A DNA stretch of 57,165 nucleotides from Candidatus Zambryskiibacteriota bacterium. Lineage in GTDB: Bacteria > Patescibacteriota > Minisyncoccia > Phycocordibacterales > Zambryskibacteraceae. Positions 2,233 through 45,566 of the stretch are shown piece after piece. Made by a program: the position numbers and the translations under genes. Numbering within the stretch: position 1 is the stretch's first letter; each line of letters begins with the position of its first letter. The notes beneath the pieces are model-generated. The model did no database searches. It saw only the letters and a list, made by a program, of their open reading frames with translations, and was not told the DNA's origin. The stretch lies in NCBI GenBank assembly GCA_016180955.1, contig JACPAD010000005.1, positions 1 through 57,165 on the forward strand, read 5' to 3'.

Positions 2233-3202
2233 AATTATACTCATAGTCCTCATTCTTCTCGGCATTGGAGCTTTTTGGTATTTCGGGAAAAATAATCAGA
2301 GTGTAAATTCTCAAATAGATTTGTTAAACACCGATTCACCAAAAGAAACTGCCTTTCAAAATAAAGGGTTAAATACTAATACAGCTAAAGCTTCTATACC
2401 TCTTGAAAAAGTTCTGGATGGAGGCCCAGGCAAGGATGGGATACCAGCTCTCATTAATCCTAAATTCATAAGCATAAAAGAAGCAGAGAAAAATATTGAA
2501 GATGATATGGATGGATTAGTCGTCTCCATTGGTAATTCGGTAAAATTCTACCCATACAACATTATGGTCTGGCACGAAATAGTAAATGATGTTGTTGGCG
2601 GTAAACCACTTGCAATCACTTTCTGCCCTTTGTGCGGATCGGCTATAGTTTTTGAAACAACTGATCAATTTGGAGTGTCGGGGAAACTTTATGAATCTAA
2701 CCTCTTGATGTACGACAAGAAAACCGAATCTCTATGGTCGCAATCTATAGGAACTGCTGTTGTTGGAGACAGAACTGGAGAAAAATTAACTGTCTATCCG
2801 TCTCAAGTGCTCTCTTTCAAGACATTCAAGGGGAAATGGCCAAGTGGCTTAGTAATGAGCACAGATACGGGCTTTAACAGAAATTATGAGCTATATCCTT
2901 ATAGAGATTACAACAATAATGATGATGTCTACTTTCCGATTTCAATAAAAGATAGTCGTTTCCCCGCAAAGGAAATTATGTATGTAGTCAATGCCTATAA
3001 TCACTCTGTGGCCTTCCCAGTAAAGCAGTTGGGTGAATCACCCGTATCAGTTGATGTGGGCGGCAATAAGGTCACGGGAGCGATAATTGAGGGAGAAATT
3101 GTTGTAAAAGAGGCATCAGGAAAAATCCTTCCTGGGTATCATGAAATGTGGTTCTCTTGGGTAATTCATCATCAAGAAGATGGAGTTGTTTGGAAAAAAT
3201 AA
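2216..3202 (+). CDS. DUF3179 family protein
   Basis: N-terminal TM; GGPGKDGIPAL, WHEIVND, TFCPLCGS, SGKLYESNLLMYD, SLWSQ motifs. Confidence 0.85.
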   Translation: MNTQVKIILIVLILLGIGAFWYFGKNNQSVNSQIDLLNTDSPKETAFQNKGLNTNTAKASIPLEKVLDGGPGKDGIPALINPKFISIKEAEKNIEDDMDGLVVSIGNSVKFYPYNIMVWHEIVNDVVGGKPLAITFCPLCGSAIVFETTDQFGVSGKLYESNLLMYDKKTESLWSQSIGTAVVGDRTGEKLTVYPSQVLSFKTFKGKWPSGLVMSTDTGFNRNYELYPYRDYNNNDDVYFPISIKDSRFPAKEIMYVVNAYNHSVAFPVKQLGESPVSVDVGGNKVTGAIIEGEIVVKEASGKILPGYHEMWFSWVIHHQEDGVVWKK

Positions 3203-3267
3203 TATGGATAAATATAAAGATATGCACTAAAATTAGTGGATGCGCTTATTAATTAATTATTAAAATT

Positions 3268-3648
3268 ATGTTTACACAACTTCTACAATATAACGACGTC
3301 GGCTTGCTTCTTTTGCGGATCGCTGTCGCAAGCATCTTCCTCTACCACGGCTTACCAAAGCTCTCAAGGTCCAAAGAGATGAGCCAAATGATGGGGATGC
3401 CGGCAGGTATGATATTTATGCTCGGCATAGTAGAAACTCTCGCTTCTCTGGGTGTAGTTTTTGGAGTCTATACTCAACTATCAGCATTACTCCTCGCCAT
3501 TGTGATGATTGGAGCCATGGGTATGAAGATGACGAAATGGAATGTGCCGTTCTCGGCAGTGGATAAAACCGGTTGGGAGTTTGATTTTATCCTGCTATTC
3601 GCGAGTATCGCCATTCTGCTTAATGGCGGAGGGTCTATTGGCTTATAA
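3268..3648 (+). CDS. DoxX family membrane protein
   Basis: LLLLRIAVASIFLYHGLPKL and GWEFDFILL, 4 TM. Confidence 0.85.
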   Translation: MFTQLLQYNDVGLLLLRIAVASIFLYHGLPKLSRSKEMSQMMGMPAGMIFMLGIVETLASLGVVFGVYTQLSALLLAIVMIGAMGMKMTKWNVPFSAVDKTGWEFDFILLFASIAILLNGGGSIGL

Positions 3649-19193: not shown

Positions 19194-20156
19194 TTATAGA
19201 CCAGAATTAATTTTTTTAACTAATTTATAAGCATTCCCCCACTTCAGCATTCCTTGATACGAAGCAGTCGACTTCTGTGAAATATTCTTCAGCATCCTTC
19301 TCTTAGCCACCGTTCTCAAAACTCTATGGTCTGGGAAATGCACCCAGCCAAGAAAGTCTACTCCGGAAGAAAGGGTTTTGATAAATACTTTGTCTGGGTG
19401 AAGCTTCAGTTTAAGTTCACTCTGTAAGAAATGTACGATATATCGTATAAATACCTCTAGCTCTGATTTGTTTTGGGAGAAGAACACGAAGTCGTCAGCA
19501 TAGCGGATGTAATGCTTGGCTTTTAGTTTGTGCTTCACAAACTGGTCGAACTCGTTCATGTAGATATTGACCAAGAGCTGGGAGGTGAGGTTGCCAAGTG
19601 GCAGACCTTTGCCTGGAGCGGTGTGGAAACTTTCAATGATTTGGAATAAGAGCCAGTTTATATTTTCATCAGGAATGTATTTTATAACGATATATCGTAG
19701 TAAATTGTGGTCGATAGAGGCGAAGAATTTTTTAATGTCACATTTCAAAACCCAGCATTGCTTTGTGTTGTTCTTGGAGACTTTGTGTGAGAAAGACTCA
19801 AATCTCTCCATTGCTTTGTGCGTGCCTTTGTTCAAGCGACAGGAATAGGAGTCGGAAATAAACTTCTTATCGAAGTACAGATAGATGATTCGATGGATAG
19901 CGTGATGCAAAAGCCTGTCTCGCACAGAAGCTTTGTGAATATTCCTTGGCTTAGGGTCTGAGATGTTGAAGGCAGAATAACTACTATGCCGATAGGTCTT
20001 GTTTAACAAACCCAAATGAAGACTATAAATATTTTCTGAAAGATTTTCAGAGAACTCTGCCACATCTTTGCGCTTTCTCTTGCCTTTAAGAAACTCCACC
20101 CAAGCGTCAAAAAGATTTTCCAAAGATATGATACGCTCATACATATGACTGAGCAT
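19194..20156 (-). CDS. DGR reverse transcriptase 1
   Basis: KPRNIHKASVRDRLLHHAI, DIKKFF, GLPLGNLTSQ, YIRYADDF, GVDFLGW; 320 aa with no maturase X or endonuclease domain. Confidence 0.95.
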   Translation of the reverse strand: MLSHMYERIISLENLFDAWVEFLKGKRKRKDVAEFSENLSENIYSLHLGLLNKTYRHSSYSAFNISDPKPRNIHKASVRDRLLHHAIHRIIYLYFDKKFISDSYSCRLNKGTHKAMERFESFSHKVSKNNTKQCWVLKCDIKKFFASIDHNLLRYIVIKYIPDENINWLLFQIIESFHTAPGKGLPLGNLTSQLLVNIYMNEFDQFVKHKLKAKHYIRYADDFVFFSQNKSELEVFIRYIVHFLQSELKLKLHPDKVFIKTLSSGVDFLGWVHFPDHRVLRTVAKRRMLKNISQKSTASYQGMLKWGNAYKLVKKINSGL

Positions 20157-20531
20157 AGCAATTTACCCCCCCCCGCAAAAGCACCGTCGGTGCTTTTTAA
20201 GGCAAAGGAGACATACTCGTATTGGCTAAAGCTTTACCGAAAAATTGCTAAGCCCGAACGCTTTGGTATTGGAGAAAAGATAGATATTCTGTTTCTGGAA
20301 ATCTTGGAATTAATGCACTCCAGCCGTTATGCTCCTGTTTCTGAAAAACTGCCGTACTTGGAAAAAACTATAGGGAAAATAGATAAAATTAAATTCTTTC
20401 TGGAAATCTCTTGGGAAAATGAATTAATGAGTAGCGGAGAATACGCTCTGATACTTGAAAGACTTGAGGGCATGGGTCGGGAGCTGGGCGGCTGGAAGAA
20501 AGGAATAGTAAACAAAAACCCCATGAGATAG
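20145..20531 (+). CDS. avd: DGR accessory variability determinant (Avd-like four-helix bundle), antisense to TR/RT
   Basis: KPERFGIGEKID...LE...GRELGGW; overlaps the RT1 start head-to-head; C9 tract 20166-20174 encodes PPP. Confidence 0.88.
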   Translation: MTEHSNLPPPAKAPSVLFKAKETYSYWLKLYRKIAKPERFGIGEKIDILFLEILELMHSSRYAPVSEKLPYLEKTIGKIDKIKFFLEISWENELMSSGEYALILERLEGMGRELGGWKKGIVNKNPMR

Positions 20532-20560: not shown

Positions 20561-20671
20561 AGTTTCGAGAAACCACCTGATTGCCAGCGTTCCACCTGTT
20601 CGGGTTCGTCACGGAGTTAGCGTTGACGTTCCAGCCGCCGTTGTCGGCGTTCCAGTTCGCGTTCACGGCCC
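20561..20671 (-). repeat. DGR1 template repeat (TR1)
   Basis: AAC-rich on the minus strand; 14 mismatches versus VR1, 13 of them at TR adenines. Confidence 0.95.
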
Positions 20672-20951: not shown

Positions 20952-21448
20952 CTAGTTGCGAGAAACCACCCGATAGCCAGCGCTCCACCTGTTCGGGCTC
21001 GCCACGGAGTCAGCGCGGACGTGACAGCCGCCGTCGTCGGCGTTCCAGCCCGCGTTCACGGCCCGCGGTTTGCTGCGAGGAACGCTCGGAACTGGCTCGC
21101 GCTCGTCTCGGCCTTGTCGCCGAGTTCAGCCATGATGGGAGCGTCGAGCGAGGCTTCTTCGAGCTTACAAACTGCGAGCTCGACTTCTTCCGTCGCCGTC
21201 ACTTCGAGGCTGTAGAACTGGTTCTCGAAGTTCGAGCCCGTGAGTTTGACTCCCGCTTCCGCGAAGTATTCCTTGGAAGTGGTAACCGCCGGCTCTGCCG
21301 CGACTTTCACGGTGCGGAGGAGAGTGAGAATCGTCTCGAAGACAATCTTGCCCTGCCCGCCGATGAAGCGAAGGAAGTTGTCCCAACCGCCCATGCGGTT
21401 GATGCATGCTTCCGTTTGTCCACTGGTTACGTCTGGATACTTAGCCAT
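20952..21448 (-). pseudogene. DGR1 target protein, frameshifted at the VR 5' border
   Basis: The 130-aa ORF stops at TGA 21056-21058; the VR-encoded C-terminus is in a different frame ending at TAG 20952; GAGGAG SD upstream. Confidence 0.85.
20954..21064 (-). repeat. DGR1 variable repeat (VR1)
   Basis: 111-bp copy of TR1; encodes AVNAGWNADDGGCHVRADSVASPNRWSAGYRVVSRN*. Confidence 0.95.
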
Positions 21449-42525: not shown

Positions 42526-42973
42526 TATATAAATCGATAGTTAGTCCGTCGGCGAAGCTGGTGGCAATCTCGTCAGAGCGTTCGTTAGCTTTGTCTCCAT
42601 TGTGTCCTGCTACATATTTCCATTCAATCTGCTGACCTTCGGTAACCAGAAGAAGCATTTGCCATAAATCTTTATTTAAAACCTGCTTTTTCCCCGCAGT
42701 TTTCCAGCCTTTTTTCTGCCAATTCTTGACCCAAAGCGTGATACCCTTCATGACATATTCAGAATCTGTATTGACTTGTATTTCTGAAAATTGAAAATTG
42801 TTAATTGCAAATTCAAGCGAGCGTATCACAGCTGTCAATTCCATGCGATTGTTGGTCGTGTGAACTTCATCCCCGCCTATCTCCATCACTCTCTCTTCGC
42901 TCGCGATAATCCCTGCCCATCCTCCCGGTCCGGGATTCCCCCTCGCCGCCCCGTCTGTGTAGATGGTTACCAT
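42494..42973 (-). CDS. rnhA: Ribonuclease HI
   Basis: YTDGAARGNPGPGG, TTNNRMELTA, TDSEY, VAGH....NERSD. Confidence 0.96.
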   Translation of the reverse strand: MVTIYTDGAARGNPGPGGWAGIIASEERVMEIGGDEVHTTNNRMELTAVIRSLEFAINNFQFSEIQVNTDSEYVMKGITLWVKNWQKKGWKTAGKKQVLNKDLWQMLLLVTEGQQIEWKYVAGHNGDKANERSDEIATSFADGLTIDLYNGPRNSYRYL

Positions 42974-43967
42974 TTGTAAATTATATCATCTACAGATTTC
43001 CTTATTTTGTAAGTATTCCCGTGTTTCAACATTCCTAAATACGAAACCAGCGATTCGGAAGAAAATTTTTCACTCAATCTTTTAAACATTCTTCTTTTTG
43101 TCGATGTTCTCAACACTCTATGGCCAGGGAAATACACCCAACCCAGAAAATCCACTCCGGAGGATAAAGTTTTTATAAAGACCTTGTCTGGATGAAAAGA
43201 AAGTTTGAGCTTGTTTGCTAGAAACTTTTCAAGAGCAGTGAGTAAAAGTGTTAAATACTGGCGGTCGCTGGTAAAAAAGACGAAATCATCAGCGTAACGT
43301 ATGTAATACTTTATTTTGAGATTATGTTTCGCGAACTGGTCAAATTCATTCATGTAGATATTGACTAAAAGCTGGGAAGTGAGGTTGCCAAGAGGCAAGC
43401 CTTTGCCAGGCACAGAATGGAAACTTTCTATTATCTGGGTTATAAGCCAATTAACATCTTCATCTGGAATGTATTTTGTAACGATATATCGTAGTGAATT
43501 GTGGTCGATAGTGGCGAAGAATTTCTTGATATCACACTTAAGTATCCAGCATTGCTTGGTGTTGTTCTTGGAGACTTTGCGGGAGAAAGACTTAAATTTC
43601 TCCATGGCTTTATGCGTACCTTTGTTTAGTCGGCAAGAGTAGGAATCGAAAATAAACTTCTTATCGAAGTAGGGATAAAGAATTCTATAGATAGCATGGT
43701 GCAAAAGCCTGTCCCGGACGGAAGCTTTGTGGATATTCCTAGGCTTGGGATCGGAGATGTTGAAAGTGTGGTAAGCGGAGTGCTTATATGTCTTATTTTT
43801 CAAATCTTCGTGTAGAGAAATAATGTTATCCATCAAGTTTCTCTGGAAAAGCTGGACATCTCTTCTCTTTCTCTTGCCATTCAGGAATTCCTGCCAAGCT
43901 TCGAGAAGATTTTCGAGCGAGATGATATCATCGTATGTATGAATACACCTTTTAAAGCCCCCCCCAA
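42967..43967 (-). CDS. DGR reverse transcriptase 2 (true start upstream of the ORF-track start)
   Basis: YIRYADDF intact; the frame is open upstream through HTYDDIISLENLLEAW; TTG 43967 is in frame only with G9 (G8 here), otherwise only CTG 43980 or ATT 43944 are available. Confidence 0.9.
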
Positions 43968-43973
43968 CGGATT

Positions 43974-44321
43974 TTGCCAGTCTTTGTTTATCTCAAGGAG
44001 TTGTATATTATCTGGCATCTCAAGTTTTATAAATTCCCGAAGAATTCGCGATTCTCAATAGGTATAAAGATTGACTCTTTGTTCGTGGAGACAATAGAAG
44101 AGGTAGCTCTGGCCAGTTTTACGCAAGATTCAGAAAAAATGGCGCATATCAAACAAGCTCTAAGTCTAACAGATACCTTGAAGATATTTCTACAAATCGC
44201 ATGGGAATTGAAACTTCTCGAAGTAAAGCATTATGCGGAAATATCAGAGAAAATGGATGCTGTGGGGAAAATGCTGGGTGGATGGTACGGACAAACTTTC
44301 AAACAAAACCACGTGAGATAG
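43974..44321 (+). CDS. avd: DGR Avd-like protein 2, antisense to TR/RT
   Basis: FPKNSRFSIGIKID, LQIAWEL, VGKMLGGW; TTG start as assembled, ATG 43939 in frame with C9. Confidence 0.87.
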   Translation: MPVFVYLKELYIIWHLKFYKFPKNSRFSIGIKIDSLFVETIEEVALASFTQDSEKMAHIKQALSLTDTLKIFLQIAWELKLLEVKHYAEISEKMDAVGKMLGGWYGQTFKQNHVR

Positions 44322-44341
44322 TATTTCTACATCTCACGTGG
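44309..44341 (-). promoter_or_regulatory. Conserved hairpin 3' of TR2
   Basis: CCACGTGAGAT...ATCTCACGTGG, 11-bp stem overlapping the avd stop; 9 nt from the TR end, as in DGR1. Confidence 0.78.
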
Positions 44342-44350
44342 AAATAAACA

Positions 44351-44487
44351 TATTTGCGGAGACGAAACACGACCTCGTTCTCAAGATTCCACTTGTCATC
44401 CGGATTCGTTCAGTTGGTGTTGAGCCACGTCTTGCCGTCATCGTTCCGGTTGAGTTTGAACACGTACGGATTGCCGTCGGAATCGGT
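44351..44487 (-). repeat. DGR2 template repeat (TR2)
   Basis: 15 mismatches versus VR2, 13 at TR adenines; contains an in-frame TGA at 44410-44412. Confidence 0.95.
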
Positions 44488-44615
44488 TGTGTGCATTAAT
44501 CCGCCAAAGCCACTGCCCTTCAAATGTTCGATAGGCTGAATCTTATCCGTGATCGTAATCACTTAGAGAAATGCACCAAGTTTGTTTATTTTTTAGTTAT
44601 TTTATAATCACTCCG

Positions 44616-44649
44616 CTCCAAACCTTGGTCAGAAACGCTCTCGATTATA
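44616..44649 (-). promoter_or_regulatory. TR2 RNA promoter and conserved 5' leader motif
   Basis: Minus-strand TATAAT (44644-44649), then GACCAAGGTTTGGAG (44616-44630). Confidence 0.65.
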
Positions 44650-44720
44650 AAATACTGGATTCGGCAGCAGGAAACCTGAGTCGTCCGCATATTCGCCTAG
44701 TACCGAAATAATTTTCATAC

Positions 44721-44751
44721 AAAAACGGCGTGTGCACAAGTGCACACGCCG
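44721..44751 (-). terminator. Terminator after DGR2 target
   Basis: CGGCGTGTGCA-CTTG-TGCACACGCCG-TTTTT. Confidence 0.8.
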
Positions 44752-44807
44752 GTAATTCAAGTGATTCAAGGGACCGAAGCCTTAACCGAAGTCCGAAGAA
44801 CCAAAAC

Positions 44808-45476
44808 CTACTTGCGGAGACGAAACACGACCTCGTTCTCAAGATTCCACCGGTCATCCGGATTCGTTCAGCTGGCGTTGAGCCACGTCTTGCCGTCATC
44901 GAACCGGTGGAGTAGGAACACGTCCGGATAGCCGAAGGAAGCGGTGATCTGCTTCATGGCCGTCCAGCAGACGGTTCCCTTCGGCTGATCCTTCCATTCC
45001 CGACGGAGAGCGGGCCCATCGCCAGGTTCGCAGAGTGCGTGGCCAAGTTCTTCGATCCGCTTCCAGAGTTCGCGGGTCGTCGGCGGTTTGGTGAAGCCGA
45101 GGTCGCGGACCGAGGACTTGCCGAACCTGACGGTCTCCTTATTGCCCGGCTTCCACGCGTCCTTCCCCATGATGTTCCGTGAGTACTCGGAGGCGAACAT
45201 GCCGTTCGCTTCGATCTCCGCGACGAGCTCATCCTTGGACTTGCCACCGACCTCGATCTCGAGGAAGACCGGGAACACCGGCCCTTTCTGCGAGAACTGG
45301 CGGATGAGTTCGCGGAGTGCCGGCGCGACCGCCGGATTCTCGTTGAAGTACTGACCGCAGTCCTCATCGAGAGCGACGGCATTGTACGCGTCGCGGAAGA
45401 GATCGGTTGCCTGTCGACCCTTGCGGCTATCAGCCGTGAGACCAGACGCTTTCAACGTTTTCGACGTCGACATCAT
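44808..45476 (-). CDS. DGR2 target protein, prematurely stopped at TGA 44868-44870 inside the VR
   Basis: AAGGA SD before ATG 45476; 202 aa to the TGA; the frame continues TNPDDRWNLENEVVFRLRK* to TAG 44808. Confidence 0.88.
44809..44945 (-). repeat. DGR2 variable repeat (VR2)
   Basis: Copy of TR2 at offset +458. Confidence 0.95.
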
Positions 45477-45537
45477 CTTTATCCTTTCTCTAGCTGTCCT
45501 GATGCGGGAAACCCGCACTCATCAGCTATCTTTACAT

Positions 45538-45566
45538 ATTATACACCCAAACAGGTTTTATGTCAA
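45538..45566 (-). promoter_or_regulatory. Consensus sigma70 promoter of DGR2 target
   Basis: TTGACA-17-TATAAT. Confidence 0.85.

Follow-up and report, generated by a model that had tools for sequence, protein, structure and literature searches.

DGR cassettes of the window

The window analysed here is a stretch of 57,165 nt of DNA, contig C6 of a genome of 488 kb that was assembled into 7 contigs with a G+C content of 46%. The nearest relatives of its proteins belong to Paceibacteria/Parcubacteria-type CPR bacteria. Two paralogous DGR cassettes lie in the window. The first, DGR1, is composed of the reverse transcriptase RT1 (19194-20156, minus strand), Avd1 (20145-20531, plus strand), the template repeat TR1 (~20561-20671) and the variable repeat VR1 (~20954-21064). 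The second, DGR2, comprises RT2 (42967-43941, minus strand), Avd2 (43974-44321, plus strand), the template repeat TR2 (44346-44494, minus strand), the variable repeat VR2 (44804-44952, minus strand) and a target gene (44868-45476, minus strand).

RT2 is a DGR-type reverse transcriptase, 73% identical to RT1. It matches RVT_1 (7.6e-25), and its translation contains an LGNLTSQ motif, LPLGNLTSQLLVN and YADD, while its scores against the group II intron, retron and Drt models stayed under the cut-offs. Avd2, which as assembled starts at a TTG and encodes 115 aa, was recognized by the bAvd family PF22296 (2.9e-13, 50.7 bits, cut-off 40). TR2 and VR2 form a direct repeat (D2), offset by 458 nt and 87% identical, and their roles follow from the repeat, from the table of mismatches between them and, for TR2, from a comparison with the templates of the family. 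TR2 is A-rich, and its translation in the frame of the target reads TDSDGNPYVFKLNRNDDGKTWLNTN, a stop, and TNPDDKWNLENEVVFRLRK. VR2 is located inside the coding sequence of the target, at its C-terminal end, and makes up the last 45 or so codons of an ancestral frame of 222 codons. No further copies of TR2 and no remote extra targets were found in the 488-kb genome.

A hairpin lies 9-10 nt after TR2, in the 3' region of the DGR RNA (44309-44341, minus strand; dG -20.4 kcal/mol, z -5.3). The hairpin after TR1 is similar (-23.3 kcal/mol, z -5.3), with a shared stem core, GUGAGAU/AUCUCA, and a similar loop.

The other cassettes of the genome differ in their state. The 130-aa target ORF of DGR1 (21056-21448) closes with a TGA just within VR1 and is out of frame with respect to the VR1 frame, which ends in AVNAGWNADDGGCHVRADSVASPNRWSAGYRVVSRN and a stop, so that the target of the first cassette is broken too. 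From TR1 to VR1, 13 of 29 adenines have changed, together with one non-adenine position. A third DGR is found on another contig of the genome (C4:2825-4559). Its VR occupies 2825-2943 and its TR 3191-3309, and its reverse transcriptase shares 52% identity with RT1. This cassette looks intact: its target frame runs unbroken to GHWGARDGFDVDCCDSARRLPRLRSRRVWA and the stop, and the core mismatches between TR and VR are mostly at adenine sites. Neither of the other two cassettes has an intact target. The G+C content also varies along DGR2, from ~53% or more in the region of the target gene (44868-45518) to ~39% in RT2 and Avd2 (42967-44321), as compared with 46% for the genome, and a similar contrast was seen around DGR1.

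TGA in both repeats of the second cassette

The letters tca at 44410-44412 and at 44868-44870 of the plus strand are TGA on the minus strand, which is the coding strand, and they occupy the homologous codon of TR2 and VR2. The minus strand reads AAC ACC AAC TGA ACG AAT CCG GAT GAC AAG TGG in TR2, and AAC GCC AGC TGA ACG AAT CCG GAT GAC CGG TGG in VR2. Translated in the target frame, TR2 gives DDGKTWLNTN, the stop, and TNPDDKWNLENEVVFRLRKYV, and VR2 gives DDGKTWLNAS, the stop, and TNPDDRWNLENEVVFRLRK up to a second stop. In VR2, the TGA ends the target gene prematurely. The part that is cut off (44808-44867, minus strand), as identified by translation and alignment, consists of the 19 open codons of TNPDDRWNLENEVVFRLRK and the ancestral stop TAG (44808-44810), at the exact point where every homologue ends. 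The presence of the same stop at the same codon of both repeats, as claimed in an earlier note on this DNA, is thus confirmed in the assembly. Since the two codons are homologous positions of one TR/VR pair, their agreement is not a chance coincidence.

Could one of the two codons, most likely that of TR2, have been mis-assembled, or be a minority base drawn from mixed repeat reads? TR2 and VR2 share long identical stretches, and the two Logan contigs that cover the cassette both break in the shared 3' end. One of them (L023, from an independent assembly of SRR12113430) reproduces VR2, including its TGA, with 100% identity. The other (L024) covers RT2 and Avd2 up to 44383 and ends 27 nt short of the TGA in TR2. 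This codon is therefore supported by the genome assembly alone, and look-ups with the 50-aa ORF of the TR and with Avd2 for an independent copy of it found nothing. However, the TGA of TR2 lies only 4 nt and 16 nt from bases that tell TR2 from VR2, so that every covering k-mer of ~21 or longer is specific to one copy, and the genome assembly ties each TGA to its own copy-specific neighbours. An error of assembly or consensus is, therefore, decidedly unlikely.

TGA as a stop codon in this genome

The codon would carry a different meaning if TGA was decoded as an amino acid, by recoding to Trp or Gly, as selenocysteine or through efficient read-through, because a full-length protein would then be made. 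Some CPR lineages, such as Gracilibacteria and Absconditabacteria, translate TGA as Gly, and near-cognate read-through of UGA by tRNA-Trp would insert exactly the ancestral residue. In addition, the 19 codons past the TGA of VR2 are open and end at the ancestral stop.

Recoding of TGA, which the earlier note had named as fatal to its interpretation, was looked for and not found. Genome-wide, 97 of the 344 ORFs of at least 200 aa terminate in TGA, and the median extension by read-through is as short for TGA (15 codons) as for TAA (26 codons) and TAG (18 codons). Among the 37 tRNAs predicted by ARAGORN, the tRNA-Trp has the anticodon CCA, and neither a tRNA with a UCA anticodon nor a tRNA-Sec was detected in the genome, on which ground selenocysteine at this codon was rejected. 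A prfB-like gene (323.6 bits) encodes an RF2 with the tripeptide SPF and the GGQ motif. Stop usage, tRNAs and RF2 place the genome outside the lineages that recode TGA (genetic codes 4 and 25). The open tail can be explained without recoding, since it was recently copied from the TR. TGA is a genuine stop in this genome, and decoding of the codon as an amino acid is highly improbable. It follows that the assembled allele of the target encodes a truncated protein, low-level near-cognate read-through apart.

The target protein and its relatives

As assembled, the target gene (44868-45476, minus strand) encodes 202 aa, beginning with MMSTSK and ending with WLNAS before the stop, as compared with 222 aa in the full-length form. 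A search with the read-through protein retrieved 57 relatives, most of them of 216-224 aa and most spanning the whole 222-aa query. More than 50 of the homologues are full length and end in VVFRLRK. The column of the TGA is nearly invariant, with Trp in at least 90% of the aligned homologues, in agreement with the earlier expectation of a Trp at this place. Moreover, the tail W..PD..W.L..EVVFRLRK is the best-conserved part of the family, and the proteins stop exactly at RLRK. In the collection, no protein other than the product of the target gene of this genome (P0001/P0058) ends at the TGA. The strain is represented by the truncated form only among 5.8 billion clustered proteins, and no full-length allele of it was present.

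AlphaFold2 models based on the family alignment agree with a role of the tail in the fold, though such models are no stability test. The 222-aa form was predicted with a mean pLDDT of 82.8 and a pTM of 0.66, including a confident last strand at residues 215-219 (VVFRL). With the same relatives, the 201-aa form reached a pLDDT of only 59.5 and a pTM of 0.34, and residues 149-201 fell below 50. Together with the conservation of the tail, this supports the previous suggestion that the 20 lost residues probably complete the fold. The truncated protein is probably misfolded and would presumably have lost its function.

Foldseek searches against PDB and BFVD gave only weak matches, the best of them to C-type lectin domains at non-significant scores (E 0.39, TMt 0.39; E 0.34, probability 0.60). 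A profile search of PDB sequences with the target returned no match, and neither did Pfam or NCBIfam. When the rest of the target was checked for relaxed constraint, it deviated from its family at 18 of 99 highly conserved columns, compared with 1-10 in the closest group and 16-25 in distant members, and it is itself an outlier with at most 60% identity.

The gene is otherwise well preserved. It is preceded by a sigma-70-like promoter (45538-45566, minus strand) of the form TTGACA-17-TATAAT, which agrees with the consensus at 12 of 12 positions. Direct reading of the sequence shows a Shine-Dalgarno-like GAAAGGA upstream of the ATG, and the gene has no other stop or frameshift. Downstream of VR2, an intrinsic terminator is formed by a hairpin of 11 bp and a T-run (44726-44751, minus strand), with a second hairpin between the terminator and VR2.

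A protein of 196 aa (P0055, L057:5001-5591) is 93% identical to the target of the window over its first ~60 residues and unrelated in the remainder. It adjoins another reverse transcriptase (L057, 6639-7487) in a type IV pilus cluster with T2SSE, T2SSF, a prepilin peptidase and N_methyl pilins. This suggests an N-terminal module common to DGR targets, possibly pilus-associated.

Template repeats of related elements

The templates of related elements were surveyed at 52 loci, 20 genomic and 32 metagenomic, by reading the TRs that lie beside homologous targets. They encode 19 distinct peptides, with the consensus TDSDGNPNVF.V.RNDDGK.WLN.NW.NPD..WNLDNE.VFRLR. including its final variable position. 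All of the 17 W-type peptides have TGG at the codon in question, and the two distant ones have AAC or GAC. Such a search of other templates for in-frame stops had been proposed in the earlier note. None was found among the 19 distinct TRs, and we conclude that the stop is private to this genome, derived from TGG, and not shared by related elements, whereas a selected switch would be expected to be conserved among them.

At conserved sites, TR2 carries two private changes. One of them is the change of the Trp to the stop (TGG to TGA), and the other turns NPN into NPY (AAC to TAC). The second is located at 44466, where TR2 has TAC (Tyr), 16 of the 19 family TRs have AAC, and VR2 has GAC, so that the change of TR2 is absent from VR2. 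As far as can be read from these bases, either the last cDNA was integrated only in its 3' part, or the TAC change may be younger.

In the same protein family, two JGI metagenome contigs of one strain from two samples (L025 and L026) are identical over their first 4011 nt except for 16 sites. All 16 differences fall in the VR (3068-3144), at positions of TR adenines. At one of them, L025 has a premature TAG that arose from the TR codon AAG, and L026 has AGG. This pair is direct evidence of live diversification and of natural nonsense alleles in this protein family.

Direction and timing of the copying

The mismatches between TR2 and VR2 bear the mark of mutagenic homing. In the 115 nt at 44351-44465 (VR2 tract 44809-44923), 10 of the 36 TR adenines have changed, and none of the other bases. 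Over the longer interval 44347-44478, changes were found at 12 of 39 adenines and 3 of 93 non-adenine positions. All three non-adenine mismatches fall outside the 115-nt tract and close to the repeat's edges, at 44466 and 44478 on the 5' side and at 44350 at the very 3' end. Downstream of the TGA, two adenines have been replaced (AAG to CGG), and the rewritten tract thus spans the stop. The table of mismatches also agrees with the view of the earlier note that the TGA has a TR adenine as its third base, from which homing can yield TGG, TGC, TGT or TGA.

The measured misincorporation of the reverse transcriptase of BPP-1 is 30.65% per adenine (PMC12875486). With 28-31% of its adenines changed, VR2 matches this value and has the appearance of one copy of the present TR2 that has not passed through selection. 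The simplest history, as read from the two repeats, is that TR2 would have mutated first and that homing then wrote the stop into VR2. Of the two alternatives put forward in the earlier note, the favoured one is therefore the second, in which a G-to-A mutation of the TR reached the VR by homing, because the W-type templates of the relatives have TGG and the adenines that flank the codon exclude a transfer from VR to TR.

The reverse order, with the stop appearing first in VR2 and reaching TR2 by gene conversion, is conceivable in so far as repeats that lie 458 nt apart and are 87% identical may recombine. However, on either side of the TGA, TR2 has adenines of its own where VR2 differs: upstream at 44414 and 44418 (by 2 and 6 nt), and downstream at 44393 and 44394 (by 16-17 nt). 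A conversion tract from VR2 to TR2 would need to be at most 19 nt long. The flow of information in DGRs from TR to VR is, furthermore, the established mechanism, as outlined in PMC3240598. Two independent TGAs would require two identical hits on one invariant codon, which is very improbable. Both gene conversion from VR to TR and an independent double mutation were rejected, on the basis of the flanking copy-specific bases, and there is very little chance that either applies.

Reverse transcriptase and Avd genes

RT2 and Avd2 overlap head to head, and a run of eight C (C8, 43958-43965) lies within the overlap. As assembled, the ATG starts of both genes are out of frame. Upstream of a TTG at 43836, RT2 has no ATG, GTG or TTG, yet its homology to RT1 reaches to 43941, and the conserved N-terminus of RT2 is thus left without a canonical start. 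The start of Avd2 is 13 residues short of that of Avd1. A ninth C would restore, at the same time, an ATG-initiated RT2 of 350 aa (ATG 44018) and an Avd2 of 127 aa (ATG 43939). The same C8 is present in the Logan contig L024 (SRR12113430). There are two readings of the run, a shared knock-out and a switch that works by slippage.

Both RT1 and Avd1 are intact. With an RT1 that is 73% identical to RT2 and with hairpins that are alike after the two templates, RT1 could possibly act in trans on the second cassette.

Fate of the second cassette

The reading that, in our view, best accounts for cassette 2 as a whole is that a G-to-A mutation of the template was homed into VR2 and truncated the target, and that the cassette is now in early decay or off. 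We give this reading a probability of roughly 0.7. By a spontaneous mutation in TR2, the Trp codon TGG, invariant and free of adenine, would have become TGA. Mutagenic retrohoming would then have taken place at least once, with the RNA of TR2 copied into an adenine-error-prone cDNA that replaced VR2. In this way, the target gene would have received the 3' 115 nt of the template. Copying presumably left the adenine of the TGA unchanged, the likeliest outcome given that ~72% of the adenines in the tract were retained. The target now ends 20 codons early and lacks the tail W..PD..W.L..EVVFRLRK.

The template would hereby be poisoned. Assuming an error of ~0.28-0.31 per adenine, spread evenly over G, C and T, we estimate that further homing would yield TGA in ~70% of the events, TGG (Trp) in 10% and TGC or TGT (Cys) in 20%. 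We infer the order of these events, as well as the enzyme that made the copy, either RT2 before its frameshift or RT1/Avd1 acting in trans. The earlier proposal that a stop homed from the template is both a sign of activity and a route to self-poisoning gains support from the rewritten tract, which spans the TGA, and from the family templates, which have TGG.

Early decay or a switched-off state is indicated by the TGA in combination with the frames of RT2 and Avd2, broken at the C8, and the non-adenine mismatches at the edges of the repeats. Because the rest of the target, its promoter and its terminator are intact, the decay, if so, would be very recent, and with the remainder of the target in this condition a revertible off state is also possible. 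DGRs with frameshifted reverse transcriptases and yet clean, A-only repeats are on record (PMC3521204).

The first alternative of the earlier note was a stochastic on/off or length switch. In a programmed switch of this kind, selection would maintain the TGA in the template so that each homing decides whether the target is full length, and the C8/C9 run might add a second level for RT and Avd. Such a switch is mechanistically possible, as the A of this codon, being a TR adenine, is open to mutation, and adenines in the stop codons of an engineered TR were mutated in reporter assays (PMC12875486). The intact promoter, terminator and remaining ORF of the target would also suit a gene that can be turned on again, as would the single slip of the C-run that restores RT2 and Avd2 at once. 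Against this stand the private nature of the stop, with 0 of the 17 distinct W-type templates of the family carrying one, and the absence of a full-length allele of the strain from the clustered proteins. Moreover, the Trp form is estimated to arise in only ~10% of events, each of which would at the same time scramble the binding site. The non-adenine mismatches and the broken RT and Avd frames also weigh against a switch. Taken together, these results did not bear out the switch, which we regard as unlikely, and the evidence points toward the stop being an accident here, with nothing that suggests selection.

There is, likewise, only a slim chance that a reversible gate in the template (off with TGA, and full-length and on with Trp or Cys) is combined with a C8/C9 run that gates homing itself. 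If this two-tier arrangement were true, a reduced CPR genome would have a variable surface protein under stochastic control at two levels.

Comparison with known DGRs and implications

Cassette 2 shares many features with canonical DGRs, such as the brt/avd/TR/mtd system of the Bordetella phage BPP-1 and the cellular DGRs of CPR/Patescibacteria. These include a reverse transcriptase with the LGxxxSQ motif, a bAvd protein, a TR and VR with mismatches at adenines, a C-terminal VR in the target, a hairpin after the TR and one-way copying from TR to VR. The change of ~0.3 per adenine also resembles the value measured in BPP-1 (PMC12875486). In contrast to canonical DGRs, the Avd gene of cassette 2 lies head to head with the RT gene on the opposite strand, and its TR has an in-frame stop at an invariant Trp codon that is otherwise free of adenine. 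Usually, TRs avoid nonsense codons and keep essential codons A-free (10.1101/2023.09.22.558884; PMC12875486).

Parallels are also found in DGRs that have been inactivated or are degenerate (Wu et al. 2018, PMC5758913; DiGReF survey, PMC3521204). Like these, cassette 2 has a premature stop in the target, a frameshifted reverse transcriptase and few non-adenine mismatches, and its repeats are otherwise clean and A-only, which implies a recent inactivation. Unlike in these, the nonsense codon of cassette 2 lies in the template and was spread by the cassette's own homing, and the lesion thereby records a homing event after the mutation of the template. DGR2 is thus a well-documented case of a known class, the recently inactivated DGRs.

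Ordinary nonsense alleles, such as that of L025 as opposed to L026, are comparable in that a VR allele with a stop reached the assembly consensus in a natural population. The stop of L025, however, arose from a sense codon of the TR, and would most likely be erased at the next homing, whereas the stop of the window would most likely be rewritten each time. The C8 is reminiscent of phase variation by homopolymers at contingency loci, as it lies where the 5' ends of RT2 and Avd2 overlap and sets both frames, and one additional C restores both. It differs from such loci in that the run has no counterpart at the corresponding site of the paralogous DGR1.

For annotation, it is advisable to mark the target as cut short by a premature stop rather than as a short gene, and not to count DGR2 as a functional DGR. 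If VR2 represents one homing event, the repeats also provide an estimate, reached without population data and by inference, of an error of ~0.28-0.31 per adenine for a CPR DGR. The general rule that templates avoid stops is unchanged by this exception, and the rest of the protein family obeys it. The pair of TGAs dates the activity of the cassette, as homing must postdate the mutation of the template. Above all, cassette 2 provides a natural record of a failure mode of the DGR mechanism, in which a G-to-A change in an essential, adenine-free codon of the template results in a defect that the element rewrites into its own target, and will keep rewriting, because the template is the only heritable copy.
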